Assembly (NCBI GenBank): GCA_041906785.1
Contig: JAYRIM010000023.1
Location: 64,019 to 128,018, forward strand
Source of the DNA: Candidatus Levyibacteriota bacterium
GTDB lineage: Bacteria; Patescibacteriota; Microgenomatia; Levybacterales; UBA12049
Direction: 5' to 3'
DNA length: 64,000 bases
The stretch's first letter is position 1, and every line of letters starts with the position of its first letter. Below are positions 14,980 to 60,472 of the stretch, piece after piece. A program made the translations under genes and the position numbers. The notes below the pieces were generated by a model. The model worked only from the letters and a program-made list of their open reading frames with translations. It searched no databases and had not been told where the DNA came from.

Positions 14980-14981
14980 AT

Positions 14982-16628: not shown

Positions 16629-16683
16629 AGTACTTACTTACCATTGTGTCGTCTTTCACAAGAATCGTCAAGTCCTCTGCCAT

Positions 16684-17100: not shown

Positions 17101-17163
17101 AATAAAGCTTGATTGCCTGTCTTATCAAAGAAAATGATAAGACAATACAATATCTTAAGTTAT

Positions 17164-18048
17164 CTATATTTGATACTTTTTTAACTTATTTGAATAATGA
17201 TTGAGAACAGATTTTCTATAATCAAATGGATGAAATGCTAAAAATGCGTCAGTTACTACTTCTGTCGTTAACGTCTTTCGTATCGAAAACAATTGAATTT
17301 TTTTTAAGAACAAATTTAATAAATAGAAGGCGGGCAGTACACTTACCATAAACAAATTTTTAACCAAACTTACTCTTTTCTGATAAAACAGTCTTTTCTC
17401 TTTTACATTTGGCATAAAAGCATATATCCACGCATTTTCTTGAAGGAGTTTTCTATATATATGTTTTTTATCCACAAGAGGATAAAGTTGTGCTAATTCA
17501 TGAGCTGTATAAACATCTTGCCGGTTTTTAGGAAAAACACATGAGTTCTCATCGATCATCATATTAATACACACGGTATTACTCTCATTATGCTGGTTTT
17601 TCTTCCTACGCACACCTAAAAACTCTAAGAGTATTAACATTAAGAAGCGAGAAATCCACAGGGTTTTTTTACTAGCAATAATAAAAAAATCTATATCATC
17701 ATCTCTTTCTGCGTTTTTTGCTGCTAGACTTCCACTTATCCCTATAAACTGTATGGTCGGGATGTTAGATAGTATATTTGCAATTTTTTTAGCTAAAGCA
17801 ATTTTTTTTCGATTCTCGTACTGTAATGAAATTCGTCTTTCAATAATAGATTCTCTATCTGCAAAAGAAAAAAATCCTCTTTTTTGAACGATTATGTCTT
17901 TTAAACTGTTAAGTGCTTTATTAAAATCTCCTTTATGTATTGGTTTTTTACTTTTTAAGTAATACCAAAGTTCCTTTTTCGTTAAAGGATAATTAAATAA
18001 ATCACTATAAATCAATGTCTGTAGAACTTGTTTTCTATAATATTCCAT
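17164..18048 (-). CDS. Polymerase-beta-superfamily nucleotidyltransferase-like protein
   Basis: GISGSLAAKNAERDDDIDFFII fits the G[SG]x(9-13)[DE]x[DE] NTase signature. About 90 aa of N-terminal and about 170 aa of C-terminal sequence of unknown fold. Its start overlaps the upstream SBP gene by 14 nt. Confidence 0.45.
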   Translation of the reverse strand: MEYYRKQVLQTLIYSDLFNYPLTKKELWYYLKSKKPIHKGDFNKALNSLKDIIVQKRGFFSFADRESIIERRISLQYENRKKIALAKKIANILSNIPTIQFIGISGSLAAKNAERDDDIDFFIIASKKTLWISRFLMLILLEFLGVRRKKNQHNESNTVCINMMIDENSCVFPKNRQDVYTAHELAQLYPLVDKKHIYRKLLQENAWIYAFMPNVKEKRLFYQKRVSLVKNLFMVSVLPAFYLLNLFLKKIQLFSIRKTLTTEVVTDAFLAFHPFDYRKSVLNHYSNKLKKYQI

Positions 18049-19723
18049 TTTTGGTGAAGACTGTTTTTACTCCATTAATAATGGTACTTACAGCAGACTC
18101 TATAGACGTATAAGAAAAAATCGCTTGTATCGCACGAGAAAGATACTCATTTAAATCTTCCGTAAATGTATCATCGTATGTATCACTCGCAAAGTAGCTT
18201 GATTTGGCATAGGGTGCTTGCTCAATAAATCGATATACCATTGGATTATTTTTTAACGACTCTGCCAAATCCTTTCTCGCATAAGGAGTACCAAATGCTC
18301 TTGTCTTACTACTTTCCGTATATAATTTTTGCACGACATCTTTTTCGCTTAAATATTTTAGAAACAATAATGCTTCTTTCTGATGTTGACTTTTCTTCGA
18401 CACACCATTTACCCAATAACTCGCTATAGTCATCTTGTCATGTTTCGGGATATAGGGGACAGGATATAGATCAAATTTTAAATTGACACCATTTTCTTTA
18501 CTTATTTTTTGAATGCTAAAAATATCCCAAGAGAAACCAAAATAAAATCCTACCTTTCCCTTAGCAAAAGCCGTCATAGAAGTGTTGGTTTTATCATTCG
18601 GATCCCACGTTCTATCTGAACTCGAAGCAAAAGGTGTATAGAATCGTAATGCAGCAACCATACTATCTGAAGTTTCAGCTAACTGATCAAATTTCATTCC
18701 ACTTTGTAAAAAAAGGAGAGAAACTATATCTGCTGCATGATTTATATTGTCGTAGGCTCCCATCGCAGCTCCTGAAATTGTGATTTTGTTATTATCTTTT
18801 GTCGTCATAGTCTTTGCAGCAATACTGAACTGATCCCATGTTTGCGGAATCTGAATCTGTGCAGCATTAAATATCTGCCTATTAACAAAAAGTGTAAGCG
18901 TATCAATGCCTTGGGGAATGCCATAGATTGCACCATTCAGAACCAGATCATCTAGAACAACTGGATAATACGTTGCCTTAAAATCATCTAACGTCACAAC
19001 ATCACTTGGCAATGGTAGTAAGACTTCCTGAAGAGTTGGTACCCATGTATTATGATAAGTAAACACATCAGGTGCCGTATTCGTCGTAGTTCTCCCTAGG
19101 ACTCTATCTTTATATTGTTTTTTATCGCGTTTTTCATATACCACTTTAATACCCGGATATTTTTTCTCAAAGTCATCGATAATAGGCTTTAGAGTCTTCG
19201 CATCTTCCCATAACCCCCAATAAGTAATTGTCGCATTGTTATACTTTTTATCACCAGAGAAAAAGCGAGATACTCCTCCTATAAGTAATGCTAAAACTAC
19301 GAGTATACCTATTCCTCCAAAAACCATTTTTAAAATTTTACTTCTAAGCGGACCAGCCATTGGCGGCGCTGAATCAGGAAGATTTCCTCCCATACTGTCA
19401 GGCGGAACATCAGGTGGAGGAGGCTCAGCCGGTCCTGATGCTTGTGGTAGTGGTTGCTCTACCGATGTTTCCTCTTGAGGTAGTGGTGGGGGTAGTATTT
19501 CTTCTGTTGGCTGTTGTGTACTATCAGGTTGTGCGACATCAGTCTGCGTAACTGGCGGAGATGGCTCTGAAACAGACTGTTCTACTGGCTGCGGAGGTTG
19601 TGATGCAGATGGTCCATATAAATCTTGCACTGTTATCCTCGGAGAATCTTGTGTAGCTGGTTGATTTCCTGCACTCTGGTCATTATTTGGTGGATTGTAG
19701 ACTACATTATTGTTTTCATCCAT
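18035..19723 (-). CDS. ABC-transporter extracellular solute-binding protein (family 1, sugar-type) with a Pro/Gln-rich N-terminal region and a TM anchor
   Basis: After the low-complexity N-terminus and one TM helix: TYWGLWEDAKTLKPIIDDFEKKYPGIKVVYEKRD…, typical of SBP_bac_1 proteins. Confidence 0.7.
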   Translation of the reverse strand: MDENNNVVYNPPNNDQSAGNQPATQDSPRITVQDLYGPSASQPPQPVEQSVSEPSPPVTQTDVAQPDSTQQPTEEILPPPLPQEETSVEQPLPQASGPAEPPPPDVPPDSMGGNLPDSAPPMAGPLRSKILKMVFGGIGILVVLALLIGGVSRFFSGDKKYNNATITYWGLWEDAKTLKPIIDDFEKKYPGIKVVYEKRDKKQYKDRVLGRTTTNTAPDVFTYHNTWVPTLQEVLLPLPSDVVTLDDFKATYYPVVLDDLVLNGAIYGIPQGIDTLTLFVNRQIFNAAQIQIPQTWDQFSIAAKTMTTKDNNKITISGAAMGAYDNINHAADIVSLLFLQSGMKFDQLAETSDSMVAALRFYTPFASSSDRTWDPNDKTNTSMTAFAKGKVGFYFGFSWDIFSIQKISKENGVNLKFDLYPVPYIPKHDKMTIASYWVNGVSKKSQHQKEALLFLKYLSEKDVVQKLYTESSKTRAFGTPYARKDLAESLKNNPMVYRFIEQAPYAKSSYFASDTYDDTFTEDLNEYLSRAIQAIFSYTSIESAVSTIINGVKTVFTKNGIL

Positions 19724-19825
19724 AGCATTTTTTAATTGTCGTTTATATATATGGTTAGGTAATAAATTTAGGGAGATTCAATACCGATTTTATAGTATAA
19801 TACCAAAGGGTACTTACGCAATATT

Positions 19826-21262
19826 ATGCCTTCTCTACTTTCAAAAATACCAAAAGATAAAAGACGATTTTTTTCTTCGCTATTAAATGGATATTTCTGG
19901 TTTATCTGTGGTGTTACGTTCGGTCTATTCTTTTTTATAAGCTTTCTTTACATCGTCCATAAAAATACATATCAATCGAAAATTTATCCTGGTGTATATG
20001 TCGACGGAAAAGATTTTGGAGGCAAAACGAAAGAACAGTTAGAAGATTATTTCCAGAAAAAAAACGAGAAAATACAACAATCCTTAATCATTTTTACGCT
20101 TGGAGATAAAGAGGCAACGGTATCAGCAAAAGAGCTTGAATTCGGATATAATCCTACGCTCCTGGCTGATCAGGCTTATAGCATAGGAAGAAGTTCTAAT
20201 ATGTTTTCTAATTTTAGTCTTATCACCCAAGCGTATTTTTCAGGTATTTATCTTCCTGCTACCTATCAATATCAAGTAGAGAAACTTGATGAACTTTTGA
20301 AACCCTTAAGAGATCTTGTGTATGCTGAACCAGTTGATGCAAGGTTTTCCTTTGAAGATGGTCGTGTAAAAGAGTTTAAGACTTCTTCAGATGGAAAGGA
20401 TATTGATATGGAAGTACTGAAATTACGTTTTTCAGAAAAAACACTGTCTGTTATTCGTGCTGAGAAACCTTTACGGTTAGTTATTCCTGTACCTGTCAAA
20501 ATCCTTAAACCAAAAGTTACTACTAATGAAGTGAACGACATAGGAATTACTGAGCTAGTGGCGAGTGGTTCTTCTCTCTTCGTCGGATCAATTCCTAATA
20601 GGATTTATAATATTACACTTGCAGCAACAAGGTTAAATGGCATACTGATTAAGCCAGATGAAATATTCTCTTTTAATAAAGCAATTGGTGATATCTCAAC
20701 ATTTACAGGGTATAAACAAGCATATGTCATCCAAAATGGGAGAACTGTTCTCGGTGATGGAGGAGGCGTATGTCAAGTTTCAACTACTCTTTTTAGAGCG
20801 GCATTAAACGCTGGACTTCCTATAATTGAGAGAAATCCACATGCTTATCGAGTGAGTTATTATGAGCAGGATCAAGGTCCGGGTCTTGATGCATCTATCT
20901 ATGTACCAACAAATGATTTTCGTTTCAAAAATGATACTGGCCATTATTTACTTATTCAAACGATTGTTGATCCTAACACTGGAAGTTTGACTTTCGAGCT
21001 GTATGGAACGAAGGATAATAGAGAAGTTACTATTTCTAAACCAGTCATTACATCAGTAACTTCTTCACCAGAACCACTTTATATTGATGATCCAACAATG
21101 CCTAAAGGAGAAGTTAAACAAATAGATTATGCAGTGTCAGGCGCGACAGTGTATTTTACGAGAGAAGTTAAGAAAGATGGACAAGTTATACTTTCAGATC
21201 GATTTAATTCTAATTATCGTGCATGGCAAGCAGTCTATTTACGAGGAACGAAAGAAGGATAA
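19826..21262 (+). CDS. VanW-family protein
   Basis: N-terminal TM, then the VanW core LGDGGGVCQVSTTLFRAALNAGLPIIERNPH. Confidence 0.8.
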   Translation: MPSLLSKIPKDKRRFFSSLLNGYFWFICGVTFGLFFFISFLYIVHKNTYQSKIYPGVYVDGKDFGGKTKEQLEDYFQKKNEKIQQSLIIFTLGDKEATVSAKELEFGYNPTLLADQAYSIGRSSNMFSNFSLITQAYFSGIYLPATYQYQVEKLDELLKPLRDLVYAEPVDARFSFEDGRVKEFKTSSDGKDIDMEVLKLRFSEKTLSVIRAEKPLRLVIPVPVKILKPKVTTNEVNDIGITELVASGSSLFVGSIPNRIYNITLAATRLNGILIKPDEIFSFNKAIGDISTFTGYKQAYVIQNGRTVLGDGGGVCQVSTTLFRAALNAGLPIIERNPHAYRVSYYEQDQGPGLDASIYVPTNDFRFKNDTGHYLLIQTIVDPNTGSLTFELYGTKDNREVTISKPVITSVTSSPEPLYIDDPTMPKGEVKQIDYAVSGATVYFTREVKKDGQVILSDRFNSNYRAWQAVYLRGTKEG

Positions 21263-30123: not shown

Positions 30124-30152
30124 TTGACAAGCATTTATGATTTCTCTATACT
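30124..30152 (+). promoter_or_regulatory. Sigma70-type promoter: TTGACA (30124..30129), 17 nt, TATACT (30147..30152), upstream of greA
   Basis: Perfect -35 hexamer, 17-nt spacer, 5/6 -10 hexamer, about 65 nt upstream of the greA start. Lies in the divergent tsaD/greA intergenic region. Confidence 0.45.
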
Positions 30153-30217
30153 TTGTGTGATTATGATTTTGTCTCTTCTGAACTAGAGCTTTCGGAAGAG
30201 CTTTTCTTTTATAAACT

Positions 30218-30688
30218 ATGCCAATGAACGCCAAGAAAATCTTCCTCACCCAAAAAGGATTAGATGAATTAAAAAAAGAATATGATGAATTACTCCATCA
30301 TAAACGCCCAGAAGTTGTACAACGAGTTGCAGCAGCACGAGAAATGGGCGACCTTTCTGAAAATGCCGAATATTCAGCAGCACGGGAAGAGTTGGCATTC
30401 ATTGATGGACGAATAGAAGAACTCGAAGAATTATTAAAGCAGGTTAATGTCATTAGTGATCAAACAGCCTCAAATCAAGTAAAACTCGGCAGTGTTGTCA
30501 CAGTGAAACATAATGGAAATAAAACAGTATATTCTGTTGTCGGGGAATGGGAAGCTGATCCTGCAGAAAAGAAAATATCACATGAGTCCCCTCTTGGAAA
30601 AGCACTCATGGGTAAAGCTGTTGGTGAAACTGTCGATGTTCAGGCTCCAGCTGGAAAAATCGCTTATACAATAGTTGAAATTCAATAA
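30218..30688 (+). CDS. greA: Transcription elongation factor GreA
   Basis: LTQKGLDELKKEYDELL…GDLSENAEYSAAREELAFIDGRIEELE, C-terminal FKBP-like domain. Confidence 0.9.
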   Translation: MPMNAKKIFLTQKGLDELKKEYDELLHHKRPEVVQRVAAAREMGDLSENAEYSAAREELAFIDGRIEELEELLKQVNVISDQTASNQVKLGSVVTVKHNGNKTVYSVVGEWEADPAEKKISHESPLGKALMGKAVGETVDVQAPAGKIAYTIVEIQ

Positions 30689-30714
30689 CCTCCTTTACAT
30701 GGAGGAAAGATATT

Positions 30715-30906
30715 GTGAATACTATTTCTCCCGAACTTATTAAAGCATTAAAAGCACATACTATAACTCCTCTTGATCTTCATACTTCTTATGAAGAAAT
30801 GTATAAAGCAAAAACAGGTACTTCATGGAAAATAAAAAAAAAGAATGTAACTATAACCATTATAAAAAACAGCGAAAATAGTTATACTGTACAAACAGAT
30901 CAATAA
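30715..30906 (+). CDS. Small hypothetical protein (63 aa), GTG start
   Basis: GGAGG Shine-Dalgarno 9 nt upstream of GTG at 30715. Sits between greA and tdh with 7-nt spacing to tdh. No family recognised. Confidence 0.35.
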   Translation: MNTISPELIKALKAHTITPLDLHTSYEEMYKAKTGTSWKIKKKNVTITIIKNSENSYTVQTDQ

Positions 30907-30913
30907 TTTTTAT

Positions 30914-31933
30914 ATGGCAGATAAAACAATGCTCGCAGTCATAAAAGAAAAACCCCAGGCAGGTGTCGTGCTTAAACAAGTTCCAATACCAGAAACGAAA
31001 CAAGAAGAGGTGCTTGTGAAAGTTAAAGCCGCATCTATCTGTGGAACTGACGTTAGTATTTATAATTGTACTCCATGGGCTGAAGGTCATATTACCCCCC
31101 CAATTATCATAGGCCATGAAATTGTCGGTGAAGTTCTAGAAATAAATACATCGCTTCCCACCCATATTAAAAAAGGAGATCTTGTATCCTCAGAAACTCA
31201 TATTTTCTGTAATACATGCTATCAATGTTTAATAAATAACAGACATGTATGCGAAAAAATGGAACTTTTCGGCATAGGAAGGAATGGAAGTTTTGCTGAA
31301 TATGCTACTATACCTCTTCGGACGACTTGGAAAAATGATCCTTCTATTCCGCTTAATGTTATGAGCGTTCAAGAACCACTAGGAAATGCTGTTCACGTCG
31401 TGACAAAAGCACAAGTAGCAGGAAAGACTGTCTGTGTTTTCGGTCTAGGACCTACTGGTTTATGTGCTGTAGCTGCAGCAAAAGCATATGGCGCAAAGAA
31501 AGTCATAGGAGTAAACCGTGGTGAATATAGAAGAAATCTTGCTATGAAAATCGGTGCTGACGAAGTATACGATACATTACCTGAAACATATAATAATGGC
31601 TGTGATGTAGTTTTAGAGATGTCAGGTAATGCTCATGTTTTACAAGCTGCTTTGACTGCAGTTCGCATCGCAGGAACATTAGTCTTTTTCGGTATTCCGA
31701 AAGAACCAGCTACTATAGACATCGGAAAGTTTTTGATTAATAAAGAGATTAATACACATAGTGTTTTCGGAAGGCGTATCTGGGAAACATGGTTCCAAGT
31801 AACAGATGTACTTGTTAATAAGAAAGTTGATTTAGAACCAATGGTAACTCACACATTTACACTTTCTGAATTTGAAAAAGCTATGGATGTTATGAAAAGT
31901 GGAGAATGTGGAAAAATTCTTCTCATACCATGA
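30914..31933 (+). CDS. tdh: L-threonine 3-dehydrogenase (zinc-dependent MDR family)
   Basis: [42 protein letters not shown] Rossmann motif. Classic tdh-kbl pairing downstream. Confidence 0.85.
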
Positions 31934-33120
31934 AAGATTTCTACTCATATCTACATACTCAATTAGCAGATAAAACCGTTCCTACAGTCGAATCAGGCCA
32001 AGGAGCTTATTTAACAATTAATGGCAAGAAAAAGCTGAATCTTTGCTCAAATAATTATCTTGGATTTGCTGCAGATGAAAGATTAAAAAAAGCTGCTATA
32101 AAAGCAATCGAACAATATGGGGTAGGTACAGGTTCTGTACGTGCTTTATCAGGAACAAATACGCTACATATACAACTTGAGGATGCACTTGCGAAGTTCA
32201 AATATGCAGAAGGATGTATCGTTCTCACAGGAGGGTATATGGCAAATCTTGCAGCAATTCAAACGCTTATTGGGAAAGAAGATATAGTTATTTCGGATGA
32301 GTTAAATCATGCTTCTATTATTGACGCCATTCGGTTATCTGCAGTGAAAAACAAATTTATCTATAAACATGCCGATATGACCGACTTGGAGAGCAAACTG
32401 CAGGAAGCAAATAAAGTAGCACAGAATCCGAAATCAGATGGTCAACAGCCACTCATGTTACTTGTTACGGACGGTGTTTTTTCGATGGATGGTGATCTCG
32501 CACCATTACCACAAATTGTGACTTTAGCGAAACAATATAATGCAGTTACTATGGTTGACGATGCTCATGGTGAAGGTGTTCTTGGTACTCATGGACGTGG
32601 TATTGTTGATCATTTTAACCTTCACGGACAAATAGATATTGAAGTGGGAACATTATCGAAAGCATTTGGCGTCATGGGAGGATTTATTACTGGGAAAAAA
32701 GACCTTATTACATTTTACCGGCAAAAAGCTCGACAGTTTCTTTTCTCGAATGGATTATCTATTCCTGATACAGCCGCACTATTAGAGTCAGTTACTATTC
32801 TTGCAGAGTCTGACGAAGAAGTTAAAAAATTATGGAATAATGCGAAGTATATAAAAGAAAATCTTATTGCAGCGGGTTTTGATTGTGGAAAGTCAGAGAC
32901 GCCAATAACACCTGTTATGTTAGGTAACGAGGATACTGCCAAAAACTTTAGTGCAAAATTACTTGAACATGATGTATTCGCGACACCTATTGTATTTCCA
33001 ATGGTTCCAAAAGGGAAAGCCCGTATTCGTGTTATGCCTTCATCATCTCACGAGTTGAAGGATTTAGATTTCGGAATATCTATATTTAAAAAAGTTGCAC
33101 AGGATATGCAGATACTTTAG
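31930..33120 (+). CDS. kbl: 2-amino-3-ketobutyrate CoA ligase (glycine C-acetyltransferase)
   Basis: Full-length PLP-dependent aminotransferase class-II fold: [11 protein letters not shown]…[17 protein letters not shown]…[11 protein letters not shown]…VDDAHGEG…TLSKAF. ATG at 31930 overlaps the tdh stop (ATGA). The track ORF starts further upstream at 31906. Confidence 0.85.
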
Positions 33121-33151
33121 CCTCAATTTCTGCTATAATAAACCTCATCGT

Positions 33152-34330
33152 ATGGCTAGAAAAAGAATATCAGAATTCCGTGCAAAGACACTTCTCTATC
33201 AAGAACTTGGTGTCCCATATACAGGTATACAAGTCACCAATAAAAATCTTCCATTATTTCTCAATTCTCAATTCTCAACTCTCAATTCCGATCAGTATGT
33301 TGTAAAAGTAGATCAAGGTGTAAAAGGTCGATTTAAAAAAGGTCTCGTGTTACTCAACCAAACAGCTGAACAATTACCAAGAGCCTTAGAACAATTAAAA
33401 CAAAAAGGTTACTCTCAATTCCTCATCGAAGAAATGACCTCTCATGAACCATCAGACGAGAAATATCTTTCTATTGAAAGAGTGAGAGAAGGATATAAAA
33501 TTTTCTATTCTAAAACAGGTGGAGTGAATATCGAAGAATCTGGACATGTCAAACAAATAATTATTCCTTATTCAGAAGATTACTCAATGCAGACCGAAGA
33601 AATCGATTCAAATTTCCTACGCCAATTATTAAAAACCTTTGATACATACTATTTCTCATTCCTCGAAATTAATCCATACATAATACTTGATACAAAATAC
33701 TTACTACTTGACGCAGCTGTTGAAGTAGATAGCACAGCTGCTTTTTTCGTAAATAATGCATGGACTGAAAAGGATTTTACGGATGGGAGTATTAGGGAAA
33801 AAACTCCTGAAGAAAAGAATGTACAAAAACTAGCAGAAAACAGCCAAGCAGCATTCTCTCTCGAAGTTTTAAATCCAAATGGAAGTATTTTCATGATGTT
33901 ATCAGGAGGTGGCGCGAGTATCGTTCTTGCCGATGAGGTTTATAACGAAGGATACGGAAAAGAACTTGCAAACTATGGCGAATACAGTGGTAACCCAAAC
34001 GCAGAAGAAACATATATCTATGCAAAAAATCTTTTATCTCTTCTTCTACGATCAATTGCCAAAAAGAAGGTATTAATTATCGCAGGTGGTGTAGCGAATT
34101 TCACTGACGTCAGAATAACGTTTAAAGGTTTGATTAAAGCTCTAGATGAAGTCAAAACTCAGCTTCAGACACAAAATATACAGGTATTTGTCAGACGAGG
34201 AGGCCCTTATCAAGAAGAAGGTTTGCAACTTATGAAGCAGTTTCTTGAACAAAACCATTTATTAGGAGTAATAGCAGGACCTGAAATGGTATTAACTGAT
34301 ATTATTACGAAAGCAACTCAATCATTATGA
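33152..34330 (+). CDS. aclB: ATP-citrate lyase small (beta) subunit-like ATP-grasp protein
   Basis: Aligns with the N-terminal part of eukaryotic ACLY / Chlorobium AclB: KRISEFRAKTLLY, FLEINPY, LNPNGSIFMMLSGGGASIVLADE…ELANYGEYSGNPNAEETYIYAKNLLSLL, IIAGGVANFTDV…FKGLIKAL, VFVRRGGPYQEEGLQLM. ATG at 33152; the track ORF starts at an upstream TTG (33095). Confidence 0.75.
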   Translation: MARKRISEFRAKTLLYQELGVPYTGIQVTNKNLPLFLNSQFSTLNSDQYVVKVDQGVKGRFKKGLVLLNQTAEQLPRALEQLKQKGYSQFLIEEMTSHEPSDEKYLSIERVREGYKIFYSKTGGVNIEESGHVKQIIIPYSEDYSMQTEEIDSNFLRQLLKTFDTYYFSFLEINPYIILDTKYLLLDAAVEVDSTAAFFVNNAWTEKDFTDGSIREKTPEEKNVQKLAENSQAAFSLEVLNPNGSIFMMLSGGGASIVLADEVYNEGYGKELANYGEYSGNPNAEETYIYAKNLLSLLLRSIAKKKVLIIAGGVANFTDVRITFKGLIKALDEVKTQLQTQNIQVFVRRGGPYQEEGLQLMKQFLEQNHLLGVIAGPEMVLTDIITKATQSL

Positions 34331-36120
34331 TCGATATCGAATTATTACGAAATACGAAACATAAGATAATCTGTATTGGTTCGCATAAGCCGATCATTCA
34401 ATCAATGTTCGATTTTGATTTCCTCTCCGGAAAAACAGAACCAAGTATTATATGTATTATCGCTTCAGGAAGACGATTTGAACGCTATTTCTTTGGAAAA
34501 GAAGAAGTTCTTATTCCGGTATATGACTCTATAGAAAAAATTCCAGCCAGTATCAAAAAAAGTCTCACATTGTTTTTTAATACAACATCTGCTCGTCGGG
34601 CGAAGCAGAGTAGTATCGATATTCTAGAATCAATGCCCAATCTTCTTGGAGGAACTATTTTTGCAGAGGATGTTCCTGAGAAACACGCTTTAGAGTTAAC
34701 TCAATTTGTGAGTAAAAAAAAGCAATGGATTGTCGGACCAGCTAGTGTTGGTTTTATTATCCCTGAGTCTTTTAAAATTGGGGCAATAGGAGGAACTGAC
34801 TATAGACAGCTCGTCGCTTCAAATGTGTTAACTTCAGGAAATGTCGCTATTCTTTCTGCTTCTGGAGGCATGGTAAATGAAATAATTCGTATCTCAGGAC
34901 AAAATGAAAAAGCAATCTCCTTTTCATTATCGTTCGGTGGAGATCGATTTCCTATTCTTTCTCCGAAAGAAGCATTTCTGGCTGCGGAGAAAGATGCTCA
35001 GACCGAACATATCCTTTATTACGGAGAATTAGGAGGAAATGATGAATATGATATTATCGATTTAGTAACCTCAAAAAAGCTTACAAAACCTATTATCTGT
35101 TATATAGCAGGCACTGTTTCAGACCTTTTTGAAACCCCCCCACAATTCGGCCATGCGAAAGCAATGGCAAAATCCCAAGGTGAAAGCGCGAAAGAGAAAC
35201 GGGAAGCGATGAGAAATGCAGGAATAACAGTTGCTGAGACATTCGGCCAATTTGTGGGATATGTTAAACAAATACCATCGAAAAACTTGGTAGAAAAAGA
35301 TAAGTATAGTACAATGATGCAAACTATGACTGACAGAAAATCAGCTCTCATAACCTCAACGATTTCTTCCGATCGAGAAGGTGATGCTACTATTCTGGGA
35401 GAAAATCTGCTCTCTTTCGCAGAAACACGTACTTTCGCTGGAATAGTAAGTTCCCTATTTCTAGGCAAAAAAGATGTTTCGAAAGATTTAGAGACATTTA
35501 TAGATTTCGTACTTCGGTTATTAGTGGACCATGGGCCATATGTTTCAGGAGCTCTCAATACTATTGTTACCGCAAGGGCAGGAAAAGACCTCGTCTCATC
35601 TCTCTCTGCTGGTTTACTTACAATTGGCCCGCGTTTTGGCGGTGCTATCAATCAAGCTGCTATGAATTGGTTACAAGGTGTGATCGAACAAAAAAATGCA
35701 TACAATTTCGTAGAAGAATTCGCAAGTCAGAAGATATATATCTCTGGCATTGGACATCGTAAATATCGTATAGATTTTCCAGATCCACGAGTTACTGCTC
35801 TTTTAGAACATGCAAAACATCTTGAAAAAAAACGATTTACATATTTTGCCTTAGAGGTCCAAAAGATTACTACATCAAAAAAAGGTAATCTTATTTTGAA
35901 TGTTGATGGTGCAATCGCTGCAATACTTCTAGATATCCTTTCTGAAAAAGAAGGTATGTCAGATCACGAATTAAAACAACTCACTGAAACAGAATTTTTC
36001 AATTCTTTATTCGTACTTTCAAGATCCGTCGGCTTTATCGCCCATTATCTCGACCAGAAACGACTCGATGAAGGCTTATTACGATTACCAGATGAGTTAG
36101 TAAGTACAAGCGAAATATAA
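34327..36120 (+). CDS. aclA: ATP-citrate lyase large (alpha) subunit-like protein (CoA-binding/succinyl-CoA-synthetase-alpha-like + citryl-CoA-lyase domains)
   Basis: Phosphohistidine loop [32 protein letters not shown] (ACLY: [30 protein letters not shown]). Citrate-synthase-like C-terminus [47 protein letters not shown] (ACLY: [44 protein letters not shown]). Start overlaps the aclB stop (ATGA). Confidence 0.75.
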   Translation: [597 protein letters not shown]

Positions 36121-36173
36121 CTAGAAAAGTAATTTATTACTATGTTCAGTTTAAATTAAAAATAGTAATTATT

Positions 36174-37145
36174 ATGCATGTCTATACAGATTATCAGCTC
36201 TCAGATACCCTATGGTATAAAATCGGTGGAAAAGCGAGATATTTTATCCAAGCCTCAAGCAAAGAAGAAATTATACAAGCGGTAGAGTTTATTCACGAAA
36301 AAGGAGTTAAAAAAATATTTGTATGTGGATTAGGTTCAAATGTTGTCTTTACAGATGGCTTCTTTGATGGTGCTGTCATCCAGATAACGACACCTGATAA
36401 AAAAGATATTACACTTTTAGATGATAATCACATACAAGCGTTTGCGGGGGTGTTACTTGACGATGTTATAAATGTAGGATTTGAGAACCAACTTGTAGGT
36501 CTTGAATGGGCAGGAGGTTTACCTGGAACTGTAGGCGCTGCTGTGAGAGGCAATGTCGGAGCATATGGTGGGGAAATAAAAGATATTCTTCAAGAAGCTG
36601 AGGTTCTTATGCTTCTTGATGATGAAACATATGAGATAAAACGCTATACAAATGCAGAATTACGATTTACCTATCGGGGAAGCCTTATTAAAGAAAATCA
36701 TGGAAGAATGATCATACTTTCAGCTCTATTTAAACTCAAACGTGCATCTGAAAACGAACTTGTTGAAGCGAAACATATATACGAAAAGCATATTCAACAA
36801 CGAAAAGAGCGACATCCGCTCGAATATCCAAACACAGGATCCGTATTTAAAAATATTCGTGAACCTGAAAAAGTTGCTGAAATTATTAAAAAATTTCCTG
36901 AAATAAAAGATTTGGTTAAAGAAAAATGGTTTAATAAAGTTGCAGTAGCTTATTTCATTCAGAAATTTGGTTTACAAGGATATCGCGTTGGTGATGCGCA
37001 AATTTCAAAAAAACATGCACTCTTTATAGTTAATCTCGGCAAAGCTACAGCAAACGATGTGAAACAAGTCATTGAAAGAGTACAATCCACATGTAAAGAA
37101 ATGTTTGGATTCCCACTAGAAACCGAGGTTGAGATAGTAACATGA
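36174..37145 (+). CDS. murB: UDP-N-acetylenolpyruvoylglucosamine reductase
   Basis: FAD-binding domain (KIGGKARYFI…VCGLGSNVVF) and C-terminal MurB domain. Confidence 0.85.
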   Translation: MHVYTDYQLSDTLWYKIGGKARYFIQASSKEEIIQAVEFIHEKGVKKIFVCGLGSNVVFTDGFFDGAVIQITTPDKKDITLLDDNHIQAFAGVLLDDVINVGFENQLVGLEWAGGLPGTVGAAVRGNVGAYGGEIKDILQEAEVLMLLDDETYEIKRYTNAELRFTYRGSLIKENHGRMIILSALFKLKRASENELVEAKHIYEKHIQQRKERHPLEYPNTGSVFKNIREPEKVAEIIKKFPEIKDLVKEKWFNKVAVAYFIQKFGLQGYRVGDAQISKKHALFIVNLGKATANDVKQVIERVQSTCKEMFGFPLETEVEIVT

Positions 37146-38374
37146 AGATAGCTCAACCTCGACTTTTTGAACCAATTGATACAACACTTCGTGAAGGAGC
37201 ACAATCACCTCTTCTGGATGACACTAATAAATTTTTCTTTTCGCAAAAAGAGAAATTAGATCTTATTGATGCGTTATCTAGATTTGGTGTTCGCTATTTT
37301 GAAGTTTTTTCTCCTATAGTTAGTCAACAAGAACATCAAGATTTATTAGCAATAATTGCAAAGAAAAAAGAGCTTCAGGATGAACTGAAAACGAAAATTT
37401 TTATTTTGTCACATGTGCGTTGTCATCCTGCTGATATCGAATTAGCGATAAACGCAGGAGTAGACGGCTTAAATATATATATAGGGACGTCTGAACATTC
37501 ACGAAAGTATAATCATGGAAAAGAATTAGACACGATTATAGGAAAGGCCAGACCTCTTCTAGCTCAGATAAGAAAACAAAATCCTCATATGATAATTCGA
37601 TTTAGCGGAGAAGATGCATTTCGAACTTCTGAAAAAGATCTTTTTTATGTCTATGATCAGATAATAGAATATGTCGATCGACTCGGTACACCAGACACTG
37701 TTGGAATAGCAGATCCAGAACATATTGCTAAAAGAATACAAGCTCTAAAAAAACGCTATCCTCATATACCGCTTGAAGGACACTTTCATAATGATCGGGG
37801 TTTTAGTTTAGTGAATGCATTGACTGCTGTGTATAATGGAATGGAATTTATCAATACCTCTATTTTAGGATTAGGCGAACGTTCTGGAATAACTTCAATG
37901 ACTGGTCTTTTCCTTAATTTATATCTACACGATCCTACGTATTTAAAAAAATTTGACAGTTCTGTTATGTACGCTTTAAACGTATTAGTGGCAGACATGT
38001 TAAACATACAAGTACCTACAACAGAACCTGTCAGTCTTACAAACCGAACCCATTCTGCTGGTGTACATACAGGTGCTCAGCTGAAAGGTAGTAGCGCATA
38101 TGAAGCACTTCCTTTAGCGGAGTTTGGGGTGAATGAGACGAGATTACTCCTAGGACCGCTCAGCGGATCACATATTATTCGGTATTATCTCAAACATATT
38201 TTAAATTATGCAGTAAATGATGAAATTGTTCCAGTGATTACTAACGAATTTAAAAATCGGATATATAAAAAGACAAAAAAACAAACTCCAACAGTAGTAT
38301 TAGAACAGATTGCCAAATCATTTAAAATCCCACATATTTCAAGACCTGTAGCACACGAGGAGTATCTTCAGTAG
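37142..38374 (+). CDS. LeuA/NifV-family (DRE-TIM metallolyase) 2-oxoacid:acetyl-CoA condensing enzyme - homocitrate/citramalate/Re-citrate-synthase-like
   Basis: DTTLREGAQSP (canonical DTTLRDGEQ), LEGHFHNDRGFSLVNALTAVYNGMEFINTSILGLGERSGITSM (HxH…GxGERxGN), LLLGPLSGSH (LGKHSGRHA). 410 aa. ATGA overlap with murB. Confidence 0.7.
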   Translation: MKIAQPRLFEPIDTTLREGAQSPLLDDTNKFFFSQKEKLDLIDALSRFGVRYFEVFSPIVSQQEHQDLLAIIAKKKELQDELKTKIFILSHVRCHPADIELAINAGVDGLNIYIGTSEHSRKYNHGKELDTIIGKARPLLAQIRKQNPHMIIRFSGEDAFRTSEKDLFYVYDQIIEYVDRLGTPDTVGIADPEHIAKRIQALKKRYPHIPLEGHFHNDRGFSLVNALTAVYNGMEFINTSILGLGERSGITSMTGLFLNLYLHDPTYLKKFDSSVMYALNVLVADMLNIQVPTTEPVSLTNRTHSAGVHTGAQLKGSSAYEALPLAEFGVNETRLLLGPLSGSHIIRYYLKHILNYAVNDEIVPVITNEFKNRIYKKTKKQTPTVVLEQIAKSFKIPHISRPVAHEEYLQ

Positions 38375-38392: not shown

Positions 38393-39883
38393 TTAGTATT
38401 TGTACGGATACCCGCTATTGCCTGTATTTAACATAAAGTAAACAATAACAATTGCGACAATAAAGTACACAAGAAGCCAAAGGAAAGTTGCCACGAAGTT
38501 CAAAACTCCCCAGACCAATCCTCGTTTCGTACCTATAATATATGAAGGAGCTATGAGTAATGCGAAGTACACACCGAGAGAGAAAACCAGTATCATTAGT
38601 GACAGTAATGTATTAAAGGTATAATCATATGAATATTTGTTTATAACGAATGAATACAGGAAAAATATAAGTAGCGTATGTATAGTCGCGAAAAGTGAAG
38701 TGAAAAAACTTACGCCAGATGTAATAAGAAAGCTTTTTTGTACTGATGATAATAACGCATGTTGATCTGTCGCAGGCTGTACATTTCGCCGGGATCGTAT
38801 TTTCTTAATCATTATAAAAGCTATAATAATAATTACTGCTAATAAGAAAAGTAATACAAGAGCTCCTATGAGTACCTCTTTACCGTATAGTCTCCATAAG
38901 CTTTTCGCATATGCACCTTTCACCGTATAGGTTTCCATTGGACTCAAATTACTTGCATATTTTGTTAAAGAACCATAGCCGATATTATTTATGAAATCAT
39001 CAAGTTGATAGCTGCGAATTTCATCATCAGAATCAAATGATGAAGGTCGTAATGAAGTGCTAAGTCCCTGATTATATCCTACAGAACCTGATCCACCTTT
39101 AAGAACATAATCCTGTTCTGTAGAAATACCTACTTGTAATGAACTGATGGTGTTGTCTGTCTTTAATGTTTTAAATTCATATCGATAGACTTGAAACAGA
39201 TCTTCTGAAGTAAAATCAGAAGTTCTATAACTTAGTAAAAGAGTAGTAGATTCATTTGATGAGGTAGGATTTGGTAAGGTTATTTTTAATCTGTCTCCTT
39301 CTCTATCTACAGATGCTTTTTTGTATATATAGCTACTGGAACTATAATCTGTATAACAATCATCATTAGGAACTGGATATGCTTTCGACGATTCAGAATA
39401 TCCAGGGGTAGGTGTAATTGGATATGCAGTGGGAGTTGGATAATAATATGATCCATCTTCCTTATACATTGGTTCTGAAAGTGGATATGGAGGATTAGGA
39501 AGATATGGATAACATGATTTTTGTGGTCTATATAACTGCTCAAGTGCTACTACATCACGTATTTCTTGAGAACTCGGTAATTCATAAGTTAAAGTTTTAA
39601 TTGAACCTTCACTTATACTAGATAAAAGTACCCGTAGACTGACAACTGCCTCACCATTACCCCGAAGATATACAGAATAATAATGTGTCTCACCAAAAAA
39701 GAGTGGCTGCTTATATGAAGGTGGAGGAACTCGAATTGGCATTAATTTTTCCTGAGCTCTACTTTGTGAAATAAAGAGAGGTAAACCGAAAAGTAAAAGA
39801 CCTATGGTGATGAATGTTAAACGAAGAATATGATTTCGCATACTAAATATAGTAGAGCATATGAATAGAGCGATGTCAATCAA
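38393..39883 (-). CDS. Hypothetical secreted/membrane protein: signal peptide, Pro/Tyr/Ser-rich extracytoplasmic domain, multi-TM C-terminal region
   Basis: Probable start MRNHILRLTFITIGLLLFGL (about 39841). Low-complexity PTPTAYPITPTPGY region. About 5 C-terminal TM helices. No family recognised. Confidence 0.45.
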   Translation of the reverse strand: MIDIALFICSTIFSMRNHILRLTFITIGLLLFGLPLFISQSRAQEKLMPIRVPPPSYKQPLFFGETHYYSVYLRGNGEAVVSLRVLLSSISEGSIKTLTYELPSSQEIRDVVALEQLYRPQKSCYPYLPNPPYPLSEPMYKEDGSYYYPTPTAYPITPTPGYSESSKAYPVPNDDCYTDYSSSSYIYKKASVDREGDRLKITLPNPTSSNESTTLLLSYRTSDFTSEDLFQVYRYEFKTLKTDNTISSLQVGISTEQDYVLKGGSGSVGYNQGLSTSLRPSSFDSDDEIRSYQLDDFINNIGYGSLTKYASNLSPMETYTVKGAYAKSLWRLYGKEVLIGALVLLFLLAVIIIIAFIMIKKIRSRRNVQPATDQHALLSSVQKSFLITSGVSFFTSLFATIHTLLIFFLYSFVINKYSYDYTFNTLLSLMILVFSLGVYFALLIAPSYIIGTKRGLVWGVLNFVATFLWLLVYFIVAIVIVYFMLNTGNSGYPYKY

Positions 39884-42182
39884 CCGCTTCCCTCCTAGCC
39901 TGAAAAGCTCTATAATAGCACCTATGTACTGGGCTGATACTATTGCAAAAGAAATTAAAAAACGCGGTCTTACTCTAGAATGGGTTGATGATATGAAAAC
40001 ACCCTCTGGAAGAATTCATGTAGGATCTCTTCGTGGTGTAATCGTACATGATCTTGTATATAAAGCCTTAAAAGATACAGATGTGAAAACTAAATACACC
40101 TATGTTTTCGAAGATCAAGACCCTATGGATGATCTTCCTGTATATTTACAACGAGAAAAATATGAAAAATATCTGGGACTACCTCTTTTTAAAGTTCCAT
40201 CTCCAGAACCAGGATATGCTCACTATGGAGAGTTTTTTGCTTTAGAATTTAAACAAGTTTTTAATGCTATTGGTTGTCAACCAGAAATTATTTGGACTTC
40301 CCACCTCTATAAAAGTGGAAGAATGAATACAGACATCAAACTGTGTCTCGATAACGCTGCAGATATTCGAAAAATCTATGAGGAACTGTATAAAAAACCT
40401 ATGCCAAAAGATTGGTATCCTTTTCAAGTGTATTGCGAAAACTGTGGGAAGGTTGTAACGACAAGAGTATTTGCTTGGGACGGTGTAAAAGTTTCATATA
40501 GATGTGTAAAGAATGCGGTAGACTGGACTAAAGGATGTGGATATGAAGGAAAAGTAACACCTTTCAGTAACGAACAAGGAATGACAGGAAAGTTACCATG
40601 GAAAATAGAATGGCCTGTCAAATGGAAAGTTATTGGAGTGACTGTCGAAGGAGCTGGAAAAGACCATATGAGTGCCGGTGGATCACATGATTTTGCTAAA
40701 TTAGTTTGTGAACGAATTATAGATTACCCAGTACCCTATCCTTTACCATATGAGTTCTTCCTTGTTGGAGGTAAAAAAATGTCCTCTTCAAAAGGCAGAG
40801 GTACTGCAGCTATAGATATGCTCGAAATCTTACCTCCAGAAATTCTTCGATTCCTTATGGTAAAAACAAAGCTAAATCAAGCAATCAATTTTGATCCTTC
40901 TGGAGATACTATTCCTAAATTATTTGACGAATATCAAAAAGCAGCAGAAGCATATTTAGAGAAAACTGATACTGATTTAGCGAGAGAATTTGAATTATCC
41001 CAAATAGATGGAGTACATAAACCACCTACTATACGCTTTTCAGCACTTACCCAGTGGATACAAATGCCTAATATGGAGAGCAAAATAAAGGACGAAGGAT
41101 TAGAAGAGTGGGCCAAATTTGCTCGTACATGGGTTGACCGATATGCGCCAGAATCAGAAAAATTTGTTGTTCAAAAAAATACACCGTCTGAAGCAAATAA
41201 TTTAACCTCCAATCAAAAATATTATTTACAATTAATCGCTGATGAACTTGAAAAAACTCGTAGCCCAGAAGAATTACAATTAAGAATGTATGAAATTTCT
41301 CAAGAAAGAAATCTCTCTTCTAAAGAAGCTTTTGCTGCCATTTATACTGCTTTACTAGGTAAAAACCATGGTCCTAAAGCCGCATGGCTGTTATTATCTC
41401 TTGATAAACAGTTTGTAAAAGAAAGATTCACAAAAATCTCATCCAATAAAACCTCTCAGGAAAACCCAAGAAATATTACAAAACTTAATCGTCCCGAGTT
41501 ATTTCACATAGACAAGCAAGTCAGCGGAAACTATCCCACGATCTCTGTCGGTTTAGCAATAATAAAAAATATTAACGTTCGTAAAAGTAATGATACTCTC
41601 GAGAAAGAAAAAGAGACGCTTCTAAAAAATTTTGAGGAATTAACAACAGAACAGCTTGGGGCATATCCAGAAATACAAAGTTATAGAAAATTATATAAAC
41701 AGATGGGTGTTGATTGGCATTCACGTCGGCCAAGTCCCGAAGCACTGCTCCGAAGAGTGGCGTTAAAAAAAGGACTTTACACCGTAAATACGTGTGTCGA
41801 TGCGTATAACCTTGTTGTAATGAAAGAAAGAGTTTCAGTAGGAGCGTTTGATTTAGATAAACTGCAATTCCCAACTCTTATGCGTTTTCCTAAACCGGGT
41901 GAAGAAATACTCCTCTTAGGAGATAGTGAACCAACTGCGTATAAAGAGACAGAGCTTGCATATTTTGATCAACAGGGAGGATATAACATTGACTTCAATT
42001 ATAGAGATGCTCAAAGGACGGCAGTGACTGAACAAACAAAAAATGTATATATAAATGTTGATGGTATTTACGATATTACTCCAGATAAAGTGCAACAAGT
42101 TCTAGAAGAAACCTGCGAGATTATAATGAAATATTGTGGGGGAAAATTAGAACTTTTCGGTGTACAATTAGCAAAAGAATAG
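39861..42182 (+). CDS. lysS: Class I lysyl-tRNA synthetase fused to a C-terminal B3/4-type domain (PheT editing-domain fold)
   Basis: Class I aaRS motifs PSGRIHVGSLRG (HIGH-type) and KMSSSKG (KMSKS), archaeal-type LysRS-I core. Residues about 530-773 carry YPEIQSYRKLYKQMGVDWHSRRPSPEALLRRVALKKGLYTVNTCVDAYNLVVMKERVSVGAFDLDKL, resembling the B3/4 domain. Probable start MYWADTIAKE (about 39924). Confidence 0.8.
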   Translation: MNRAMSINRFPPSLKSSIIAPMYWADTIAKEIKKRGLTLEWVDDMKTPSGRIHVGSLRGVIVHDLVYKALKDTDVKTKYTYVFEDQDPMDDLPVYLQREKYEKYLGLPLFKVPSPEPGYAHYGEFFALEFKQVFNAIGCQPEIIWTSHLYKSGRMNTDIKLCLDNAADIRKIYEELYKKPMPKDWYPFQVYCENCGKVVTTRVFAWDGVKVSYRCVKNAVDWTKGCGYEGKVTPFSNEQGMTGKLPWKIEWPVKWKVIGVTVEGAGKDHMSAGGSHDFAKLVCERIIDYPVPYPLPYEFFLVGGKKMSSSKGRGTAAIDMLEILPPEILRFLMVKTKLNQAINFDPSGDTIPKLFDEYQKAAEAYLEKTDTDLAREFELSQIDGVHKPPTIRFSALTQWIQMPNMESKIKDEGLEEWAKFARTWVDRYAPESEKFVVQKNTPSEANNLTSNQKYYLQLIADELEKTRSPEELQLRMYEISQERNLSSKEAFAAIYTALLGKNHGPKAAWLLLSLDKQFVKERFTKISSNKTSQENPRNITKLNRPELFHIDKQVSGNYPTISVGLAIIKNINVRKSNDTLEKEKETLLKNFEELTTEQLGAYPEIQSYRKLYKQMGVDWHSRRPSPEALLRRVALKKGLYTVNTCVDAYNLVVMKERVSVGAFDLDKLQFPTLMRFPKPGEEILLLGDSEPTAYKETELAYFDQQGGYNIDFNYRDAQRTAVTEQTKNVYINVDGIYDITPDKVQQVLEETCEIIMKYCGGKLELFGVQLAKE

Positions 42183-58805: not shown

Positions 58806-58820
58806 CTCTGCAACTCTTAA

Positions 58821-59609: not shown

Positions 59610-59611
59610 AA

Positions 59612-60403: not shown

Positions 60404-60472
60404 AAAAAGAATTAGCGATTAGCGAATAAGCGATTAGCTTCTAGATTTTAACTAAACGCTAGACCTCATGTT

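Follow-up and report, generated by a model that had tools for sequence, protein, structure and literature searches.

A two-subunit ATP-citrate lyase of archaeal/eukaryote-like type in a Levybacteria-like bacterium of the Candidate Phyla Radiation and its recurrent biosynthetic neighbours

A two-subunit, archaeal-like ATP-citrate lyase (ACL) was described by Sieber et al. in 2019 (mBio, PMC6851277) in a closed Gracilibacteria genome, as an enzyme "rarely detected in CPR", the Candidate Phyla Radiation. It was proposed there that the Gracilibacterium ACL converts external citrate into acetyl-CoA and oxaloacetate, a role resembling that of the enzyme in the eukaryotic cytosol (PMC6851277). Later on, a 2022 preprint addressed mis-annotated citrate-cleavage enzymes in CPR and DPANN, and a 2025 groundwater study reported the enrichment of aclAB in metagenome-assembled genomes (MAGs) of Saccharimonadia (PMC12577380). 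A search of the literature for citrate lyase or citrate in connection with Levybacteria, Microgenomates or Patescibacteria returned only passing mentions, along with papers that list ACL as a marker of the reductive tricarboxylic acid cycle in other phyla; neither the Levybacteria clade nor the gene neighbourhoods were the subject of any paper found. Here we analyse the aclB and aclA genes in a stretch of 64,000 nt from Candidatus Levyibacteriota bacterium (assembly GCA_041906785.1, contig JAYRIM010000023.1, positions 64,019-128,018 of the forward strand); this whole stretch is called the window, and all coordinates are positions within it. ACL in the CPR is already published, and what is added is its breadth in Levybacteria and Saccharibacteria, a GHAKA signature in the enzyme and a recurrent linkage to cell-wall, lysine and threonine genes. 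The original prediction for this DNA, made from its letters alone, held an ACL to be unexpected in such a genome, which was overstated, since the host belongs to the CPR, ACL is widespread in its clade and a CPR enzyme has been in print since 2019 (PMC6851277). Overall, the reading favoured here is that the locus encodes a real CPR ACL whose cleavage of acquired citrate would provide biosynthesis with acetyl-CoA and oxaloacetate, with a probability of roughly 0.6.

At the protein level, both subunits carry the domains that characterise the enzyme. The aclB product (33152-34330, + strand, 392 aa) combines an ATP-grasp and a citrate-binding domain, matched by PF24948 (the ACL ATP-grasp profile; 102.7 bits for a cut-off of 83) and by PF16114 (Citrate_bind; E = 2e-56). 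Among solved proteins, it scores best against the N-terminal half of human ACLY (201 bits) and the Methanosaeta (Methanothrix) concilii subunit (196 bits), followed by that of Chlorobium limicola (132 bits) and by CcsA (50 bits). It also keeps residues G309, N346, T348 and R379 of human ACLY, located in YGEYSG, ANFT and RRGGP motifs of a phmmer alignment to 3mwd_A, which we take from the 3MWD work to be citrate-binding positions. The aclA gene (34327-36120, + strand) overlaps aclB by an ATGA and encodes 597 aa in which a CoA-ligase alpha-like portion, matched by PF00549 (Ligase_CoA) and PF13607 (Succ_CoA_lig), is joined to a citryl-CoA-lyase domain matched by PF00285 (Citrate_synt) at 8.9e-23 over residues 337-584. 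In the alignment, human E599, H760, H900, H975, R976 and D1026 have their respective counterparts in AclA residues E114, H276, H402, H477, R478 and D527. Both the catalytic glutamate (E599) and the phosphohistidine (H760) of the human enzyme are thus matched, and D527 is the lyase aspartate, the residue changed to alanine in 6znw. All of these positions are invariant in 14 CPR homologues with the exception of R478. The phosphohistidine loop reads GHAKA and not the canonical GHAGA; its histidine is retained, and Lys278 is likewise invariant in 14 CPR homologues. The assignment of aclB and aclA to an ACL in the original prediction is therefore upheld, with the full domain set present, the catalytic and citrate-site residues kept and the His/His/Asp set of the lyase domain intact.

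Since public records name some of the homologues "succinyl-CoA synthetase alpha subunit", "citrate/2-methylcitrate synthase" or "hypothetical protein", it could be argued that the pair is a mis-called succinyl-CoA synthetase (SCS) or citryl-CoA synthetase (CCS) and no lyase at all. This is scarcely credible in view of a fused lyase domain that bears H402, H477 and D527 and of the strong match of AclB to the citrate-binding profile. In the same direction, AclA reaches some 330-350 bits against the solved archaeal and human ACLs (348 for M. concilii, 6hxi_B, and 328 for human ACLY, with 234 for C. limicola AclA), whereas it stays at 50-70 bits against SCS-alpha (70), citryl-CoA lyase (CCL; 63) and CcsB (55). 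Both proteins thus lie far from SCS, CCS and CCL, and the tree described below places the CPR clade among ACL representatives, so that the misplacement contemplated in the original prediction did not materialise. As far as sequence can tell, aclB and aclA form a complete two-subunit ACL of the archaeal/eukaryote-like type, and it is very probable that this is the genuine enzyme of a conserved CPR clade.

Judging from its genes, the host belongs to the CPR (Patescibacteria) and is Levybacteria-like. The few close homologues that bear a name belong to "Candidatus Levybacteria", and the gene order of the window (substrate-binding protein (SBP), VanW, cytidylyltransferase, DUF192, tsaD, greA) matches that of a Levybacteria MAG. 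Many of the ACL-bearing MAGs (in the series L004-L066, L-numbers being the labels of the related loci compared) are titled "uncultured Gammaproteobacteria bacterium" in public records, titles that must be considered unreliable because, in gene content and gene order, these MAGs are Levybacteria and other Patescibacteria. A scan with one genome per species revealed at least 140 CPR genomes encoding a relative of the enzyme, and the 80 loci retrieved come from Levybacteria, Roizmanbacteria, Woesebacteria, Saccharibacteria/Saccharimonadia and unclassified Patescibacteria. Homologues make up more than 120 clusters at 60-71% identity. The family is nevertheless small, given that just 140 clusters at E<=1e-30 were recovered when 1.84 billion cluster representatives (50% identity) were searched exhaustively. 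In a neighbour-joining tree, which is crude in that it lacks both bootstrap values and an outgroup of CCS or SCS, the CPR AclA sequences are monophyletic and stand among two-subunit and long fused forms, including one from a DPANN archaeon (Norongarragalinales), far from the AclA of the reductive tricarboxylic acid (TCA) cycle in Chlorobiaceae; the pairwise scores agree with this position. Taken together, the sequences indicate inheritance of ACL in a CPR clade comprising Levybacteria, Roizmanbacteria, Woesebacteria and Saccharibacteria. A recent horizontal transfer of ACL, or of the homocitrate-synthase-type gene discussed further on, was considered and rejected, as GC and GC3 (GC at third codon positions) resemble those of the neighbouring genes and the AclA tree broadly tracks the lineage labels.

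ACL is the usual marker gene of the reductive TCA cycle and is routinely counted as a marker of carbon fixation in metagenome surveys, and on these grounds the locus might be thought to signal autotrophic CO2 fixation. This is extremely improbable here. The 64-kb window contains no 2-oxoglutarate:ferredoxin oxidoreductase, fumarate reductase, pyruvate:ferredoxin oxidoreductase or other TCA gene, nor any citrate transporter or oxaloacetate decarboxylase, and no citrate-fermentation or TCA genes were recognised among the recurrent, annotated neighbour families across the 80 loci. Moreover, the window enzyme is more distant from the Chlorobiaceae ACL than from the archaeal/eukaryote-type ACL, and the CPR lineage to which the host belongs is generally held to be non-autotrophic (PMC12577380, discussion). 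It follows that counts of the reductive TCA cycle based on ACL can mislead, because at least 140 species-level CPR genomes hold a genuine ACL and yet show nothing that points to autotrophy.

The surroundings of aclBA were surveyed by mapping reference proteins with tblastn on 81 non-duplicate loci, and the neighbouring open reading frames (ORFs) were also clustered without prior assumptions. The only constant pair is aclB-aclA itself, adjoining in 79/79 loci where both genes were found. In the window, eight ORFs follow each other on the + strand (greA, a 63-aa ORF, tdh, kbl, aclB, aclA, murB and the homocitrate-synthase-type gene), a full set that occurs in none of the 80 other loci. The eight-gene arrangement is lineage-specific and greA is a syntenic anchor, found upstream of aclBA in 14 loci. 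The downstream anchor, found 3' of aclBA in 11 loci, is lysK (39861-42182, + strand), for a class I lysyl-tRNA synthetase that carries a B3_4 domain at its C-terminus (PF01921 and PF03483). The murB gene (36174-37145, + strand), for UDP-N-acetylenolpyruvoylglucosamine reductase (TIGR00179, 200.9 bits for a cut-off of 144.5), is located 3' of aclA on the same strand and within 1.7 kb in 29 of the 73 loci whose flank is long enough; in five of them the two genes overlap at the aclA stop. In many loci aclA and murB are set apart by short, unrelated insertions, for instance genes of four-helix "23S rRNA IVS" proteins. A four-helix-bundle 23S rRNA intervening sequence (IVS) protein is also encoded at 61464-61841 of the window, and members of its family stand between aclA and murB in L022, L024, L026 and L033; in their behaviour they resemble mobile fillers of the space between genes.

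Other cell-wall and amino-acid genes recur in the same vicinity. The ddl gene is found directly 5' of aclB in another subclade (L005, L012, L014 and L020) and 5-7 kb upstream in three distant loci. Genes of the diaminopimelate (DAP) route to lysine follow in 4-5 loci overall. The array of L003 runs greA-aclB-aclA-tdh-kbl-aminotransferase-lysA-aspartokinase-dapB-dapA-asd-lysK, and DAP genes also lie between aclBA and lysK in L007 and L017. The aminotransferase that adjoins lysA in L003 was considered as an aspartate aminotransferase, a proposal that was dropped because its position suggests a DAP-pathway aminotransferase. Past aclBA-murB, L017 contains an acyl-type DAP branch (13759-21163 of that locus) comprising an M20 peptidase, a DapD-like hexapeptide acyltransferase, an aminotransferase, LysA, aspartokinase, DapB and DapA, while L028 (13019-17356) has a LysA-like gene and an M20 gene ahead of lysK. 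The contents of L017 and L028 differ at this place, which means that varied versions of the lysine pathway share one slot across genomes. In L074, asd-hom-aspartokinase are located near aclBA. The tdh-kbl pair is linked to aclBA in eight loci belonging to at least three subclades of the AclA tree, upstream in seven and downstream in L003. In 16 Saccharibacteria loci a gene for a GNAT acetyltransferase lies beside aclB at a median distance of -4 nt, on the same strand in 14 and as the immediate same-strand upstream gene in 12, and further GNATs are found 3' of aclA or murB in several loci from Levybacteria. In the Saccharibacteria loci (L058-L083), tsaE and tsaB are encoded on the opposite strand just past the GNAT, with pilB-pilC-pilM downstream; in Levybacteria, tsaD is located 3.6-6 kb upstream. 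The proximity of ACL to genes of threonylcarbamoyl-adenosine (t6A) synthesis in both lineages may represent an ancient shared synteny.

An inherited order of this kind could also lie behind the neighbourhood as a whole. According to this possibility, there would be no functional coupling beyond aclB-aclA, and the remaining genes would be independent neighbours held together by small-genome packing and by the old synteny tsaD ... greA ... lysK. The uniqueness of the eight-gene arrangement to the window, the widely varying content of the greA-lysK interval among relatives, the unrelated small inserts that split aclA from murB in many loci and the ordinary housekeeping nature of the surrounding genes all fit with it. 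However, murB, ddl, lysine genes and tdh-kbl recur by aclBA in separate subclades and in different orders, a pattern that is hard to obtain via descent alone, and we consider the absence of coupling unlikely.

The cleavage of acquired citrate for biosynthesis is favoured instead because the recurrent neighbours use, or lie downstream of, acetyl-CoA or oxaloacetate. In general, DAP and lysine synthesis starts from aspartate, derived from oxaloacetate, and pyruvate, and both GNATs and homocitrate synthase consume acetyl-CoA. The products of murB and ddl serve to make the precursor of peptidoglycan, and the same pools provide its N-acetyl groups and its DAP or lysine. Under this model, citrate would be acquired from the host or the surroundings, and ACL would run as cleavage (citrate + ATP + CoA -> acetyl-CoA + oxaloacetate), giving a minimal cell both biosynthetic acetyl-CoA and a C4 skeleton. 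Oxaloacetate would be converted through aspartate into diaminopimelate and lysine, and acetyl-CoA would enter acetylation reactions and homocitrate synthase. Tdh-Kbl would be an optional recurring partner that turns threonine into glycine and acetyl-CoA or, reversed, makes threonine from ACL-derived acetyl-CoA and glycine. In the window, the eight genes are packed behind the promoter and leader of greA, with possible co-transcription. The direction of the reaction and its biosynthetic purpose, taken on their own, have about an even chance of being right. To our knowledge, CPR bacteria are generally regarded as having no TCA cycle. The original prediction had suggested a citrate fermentation via ACL, an idea that finds no support here: the window has no citrate transporter, oxaloacetate decarboxylase or other TCA gene, and the recurrent neighbours are biosynthetic. 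Its broader proposal of an acetyl-CoA/oxaloacetate/citrate node survives in that Tdh-Kbl, ACL and an acetyl-CoA-condensing enzyme are indeed adjacent, but the eight genes are not a conserved unit. If the citrate route is conserved as proposed, it would name a concrete metabolite taken by host-dependent CPR cells from their partners, and would serve as a source of precursors for cell wall and lysine.

Several points weigh against a citrate-cleaving, biosynthetic ACL. No citrate transporter, aspartate aminotransferase, phosphoenolpyruvate carboxykinase or malic enzyme was found beside aclBA in the 80 loci. Cleavage would use up one ATP for each citrate, a high price where energy comes from fermentation, and the GHAKA loop departs from its canonical form. 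The neighbour patterns come from related genomes and amount to few independent events, and the linkage of murB or greA may have no functional meaning and reflect inherited synteny. In Saccharibacteria the GNAT may be rimI, given its place beside tsaE and tsaB, as in the common tsaE-tsaB-rimI-tsaD neighbourhood. Finally, the homocitrate-synthase-type gene is an orphan in 5/7 of its homologue contexts, which makes its role in lysine synthesis insecure.

The tdh gene (30914-31933, + strand) encodes a zinc-dependent L-threonine 3-dehydrogenase whose top matches, by a factor of two, are TIGR00692 (348 bits) and NF003808 (343 bits), both under the equivalog cut-offs (458 and 380, respectively). Among solved structures the archaeal L-threonine dehydrogenases are the best, with 288 bits, and the next family that is not a threonine dehydrogenase (TDH) reaches 120, so that TDH is clearly the best family for the predicted product. 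It is followed, with an ATGA overlap, by kbl (31930-33120, + strand), for glycine C-acetyltransferase (2-amino-3-ketobutyrate CoA ligase, KBL), with 460.9 bits for NF005394 (cut-off 460), 505.6 bits for TIGR01825 and 260-317 bits against KBL structures. Tdh-Kbl may act as a second source of acetyl-CoA, as the feeder of a reversed ACL, or itself in reverse.

The second of these options leads to an alternative in which ACL runs backwards and makes citrate with a gain of ATP (acetyl-CoA + oxaloacetate + ADP + Pi -> citrate + CoA + ATP), the acetyl-CoA being supplied from threonine by Tdh-Kbl. The citrate would be excreted, or converted by aconitase and isocitrate dehydrogenase into 2-oxoglutarate, the co-substrate of the adjacent homocitrate synthase. 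Such a scheme is attractive in that it makes tdh-kbl-aclB-aclA a series of successive steps, encoded on one strand by genes that overlap or lie close together. In its favour, too, the tdh-kbl linkage is found in two orders across at least three subclades, and a homocitrate-synthase-type enzyme requires 2-oxoglutarate. The reaction of ACL lies near equilibrium, and the enzyme reportedly serves for citrate formation in Desulfobacter postgatei, a finding ascribed to Moeller, Schauder, Fuchs and Thauer in 1987. Nonetheless, tdh-kbl is missing from about 90% of the ACL loci and the homocitrate-synthase-type gene from all except the window. No aconitase-family gene was found within 10 kb of aclBA in the 80 loci. 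The reversed enzyme would need a stoichiometric supply of oxaloacetate, of which none is evident, and the other recurrent neighbours (GNATs and DAP genes) consume acetyl-CoA or aspartate-family precursors, in better agreement with cleavage. For these reasons, operation of the enzyme in the direction of citrate is regarded as quite unlikely.

A further development of the cleavage model places the reversal in Tdh-Kbl and not in ACL. In this case, ACL would head an amino-acid route from scavenged citrate in which oxaloacetate leads through aspartate to DAP and lysine, destined for peptidoglycan and protein, and acetyl-CoA and glycine are condensed into threonine via reversed Kbl and Tdh. This is a speculative extension to which we give little weight. 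If true, it would constitute a natural threonine route that bypasses homoserine, and the L003 array would represent one "citrate to Lys + Thr" operon, of which the window would be a reshuffled version with an aminoadipate-type entry enzyme replacing the DAP genes.

The last of the eight genes (37142-38374, + strand), which overlaps murB by an ATGA, encodes a LysS-like, homocitrate-synthase-type condensing enzyme for acetyl-CoA and a 2-oxoacid, with PF00682 (HMGL-like) and PF22617 (HCS_D2) domains. Its best NCBIfam match is TIGR02146 (fungal/archaeal homocitrate synthase) with 251.8 bits, under the cut-off of 413.55, and because this score stays below the equivalog threshold the gene is filed as of homocitrate synthase (HCS) type and not as a proven LysS. 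Compared with solved enzymes, it reaches 212 bits against T. thermophilus HCS (TtHCS) and 205 against that of S. pombe, for 65-89 against isopropylmalate synthase (IPMS) and citramalate synthase (CimA). In alignments to 2ztj and 3a9i it keeps TtHCS residues R12, E13, H72, R133, S135, T166, H195 and H197, of which R12, H72, R133, S135 and T166 are presumably ligands of 2-oxoglutarate and E13, H195 and H197 ligands of the metal. The conservation of these residues points to a dicarboxylic 2-oxoacid as the substrate. A citramalate or isopropylmalate synthase was rejected on the basis of the much lower IPMS and CimA scores and of the dicarboxylate-binding Arg/Ser/His set that is kept, and a Re-citrate synthase activity is possible.

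The context of its relatives informs on the probable role of this gene. Its sequence neighbours belong to Shapirobacteria, other Patescibacteria and Anaerolineae. In a Microgenomates-like locus (L085) the order is greA ... lysW-lysX-lysY-lysZ-lysJ-orf-HCS-lysK, with 54%, 56% and 57% identity to the GreA, LysK and HCS-type proteins of the window, respectively, and an Anaerolineales homologue (L087) sits 5' of a two-subunit aconitase-family enzyme, as expected for homoaconitase. The HCS-type gene stands beside aclBA in the window only and in none of the other ACL loci. LysW, LysX, LysY, LysZ, LysJ and the homoaconitase subunits gave no tblastn match in any ACL locus, and the window holds no other gene of the aminoadipate pathway. 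From its sequence and place, the gene is better read as a putative lysine-pathway gene located with lysK than as a partner of ACL. Of the activities that the original prediction had offered for this LeuA/NifV-like gene (Re-citrate, citramalate or homocitrate synthase), the homocitrate type held up, whereas citramalate is unlikely and the partnership with ACL found no counterpart in any other locus. The LysK protein of the window, of about 770 aa, is a fusion to B3_4, the fold of the PheRS beta subunit, and the same fusion exists in L085 (9296-11602). The lysK start overlaps by 23 nt the start of a divergent gene for a 496-aa membrane protein (38393-39883).

At the transcriptional level, the locus begins in the divergent tsaD/greA spacer with a sigma-70-type promoter, TTGACA-17-TATACT (30124-30152, + strand), that fits 11/12 consensus positions. 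This near-consensus element, noted in the original prediction, occurs once in the 64 kb, with 0.03 occurrences expected by chance, and the TTGACA...TATACT arrangement is also present 5' of greA in at least nine related loci. Between the promoter and the greA ATG there is a terminator-like leader hairpin (30173-30210, + strand) with a 10-bp stem and a U-run, a folding energy of -13.1 kcal/mol and z = -2.1. A GC hairpin with a U-run is kept 5' of greA in the window and in L003, L004, L007, L008, L009, L016, L018, L031 and L062. We take the promoter-hairpin-greA leader (30124-30217) to resemble the terminator-containing GraL leader of E. coli greA, and by this analogy its conservation suggests an attenuation control of greA in CPR bacteria. 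Since the terminator-like hairpin separates the promoter from greA, any service of this promoter to genes beyond greA needs read-through of the leader. The greA gene itself (30218-30688, + strand) encodes the transcript cleavage factor (PF03449 and PF01272; NF001263, 186.6 bits for a cut-off of 145).

Between greA and tdh lies the 63-aa ORF (30715-30906, + strand), with a GTG start and a strong Shine-Dalgarno sequence, GGAGG, 8 nt upstream. Its GC of 0.27 and GC3 of 0.125 deviate from those of its neighbours (0.35-0.40 and 0.22-0.26, respectively), it has no Pfam or NCBIfam match, and tblastn gave no match in the related loci. In L004 and L062, the greA and tdh matches are separated by 19 nt and 16 nt, respectively. 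The ORF is judged a doubtful gene because of this aberrant GC, the lack of a family match and its absence from the closest relatives; if not a small gene specific to this lineage, it is a spacer rich in AT. The refined start of kbl is ATG 31930. For aclB, the most likely start is ATG 33152 and not TTG 33095; it gives 392 aa, as in the homologues, and makes the kbl-aclB spacing 31 nt. The seven junctions across the eight ORFs are thus 26, 7, -4, 31, -4, 53 and -4 nt.

All eight + strand ORFs of the original prediction are present at 30124-38374, the ATGA overlaps that it noted at tdh/kbl, aclB/aclA and murB/LeuA-like were verified, and its names for seven of them (greA, tdh, kbl, aclB, aclA, murB and the LeuA-like gene) are backed by profile searches. 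Its suggestion of a possible single operon stands as regards the common strand, the tight junctions and the one promoter, but the eight-gene set is not conserved. A scan of the + strand from greA to the end of the HCS-type gene gave no convincing terminator. Promoter-like sites in the region number 30, compared with 36.7 in shuffled sequence, and one of them, with 10/12 positions, is located within aclB at 33474. One operon of eight co-transcribed genes is therefore a plausible prediction. Rfam and tRNA scans of the whole 64 kb returned neither a tRNA gene nor an Rfam match that passed the threshold; in particular, the Rfam scan showed no riboswitch or T-box in the window that would hint at control by lysine, glycine or threonine.

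Elsewhere in the window, some features deserve mention in their own right. A ClpB/ClpC-like chaperone is seemingly split into two adjacent genes, 14982-16628 (Clp_N and the first AAA module) and 13318-14979 (the second AAA module and D2-small), and a separate full-length Clp paralogue lies next door (9614-12187). Among the housekeeping genes there are a Phage_holin_4_2 holin-family protein and a type IV secretion pilin-like protein (12983-13321 and 16684-17100). Four tandem genes for ABC-2 family permeases followed by one ABC ATPase gene make up an unusually repeated transporter array at 57199-61450.

The comparison with known systems helps to place the locus. The tdh-kbl pair resembles the kbl-tdh operon of E. 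coli in its adjoining, overlapping genes for a zinc TDH and a pyridoxal-phosphate-dependent KBL; it differs in the order (tdh then kbl), in a TDH that is nearest to archaeal enzymes and in the link to ACL found in eight CPR loci. For the HCS-type gene, T. thermophilus LysS (2ztj) and S. pombe Lys4 (3ivs) are the best solved relatives and their ligands are kept. Unlike the HCS of the aminoadipate pathway, it scores 252 bits for a cut-off of 413 and has no pathway company in the window, and most of its CPR homologues are orphans. Concerning the lyase itself, CcsAB/Ccl of Hydrogenobacter (6hxq, 6hxp) shares homologous modules and carries out the same two half-reactions, yet its lyase is a separate protein and the scores are limited to 50-63 bits, whereas the lyase of the window is fused to the alpha-type subunit, as in the ACL architecture. 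Chlorobium AclBA (6hxj) has the two-subunit architecture and the chemistry in common with the window enzyme, at 234 and 132 bits and 34% identity (Chlorobiaceae cluster), and serves the autotrophic reductive TCA cycle. The likeness is one of domain order in the case of M. concilii ACLY-A/B (6hxi, 6znw) and human ACLY (6hxh, 6poe), with the two-gene split as in M. concilii. From these the window ACL is set apart by about 35-40% identity, by GHAKA in place of GHAGA and by its minimal-genome bacterial host. The nearness of the CPR clade to the archaeal/eukaryote-type ACL may be of interest for the study of the origin of ACLY. Another close system is the Gracilibacterium ACL (PMC6851277), set beside that of the window by its published description, which is likewise a two-subunit, archaeal-like CPR enzyme, with GHAGA and candidate citrate transporters nearby. 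In contrast, the enzyme described here has no transporter nearby and belongs to a Levybacteria/Microgenomates clade in which ACL is common, carries the GHAKA loop and is linked to murB, ddl, lysine and tdh-kbl genes.

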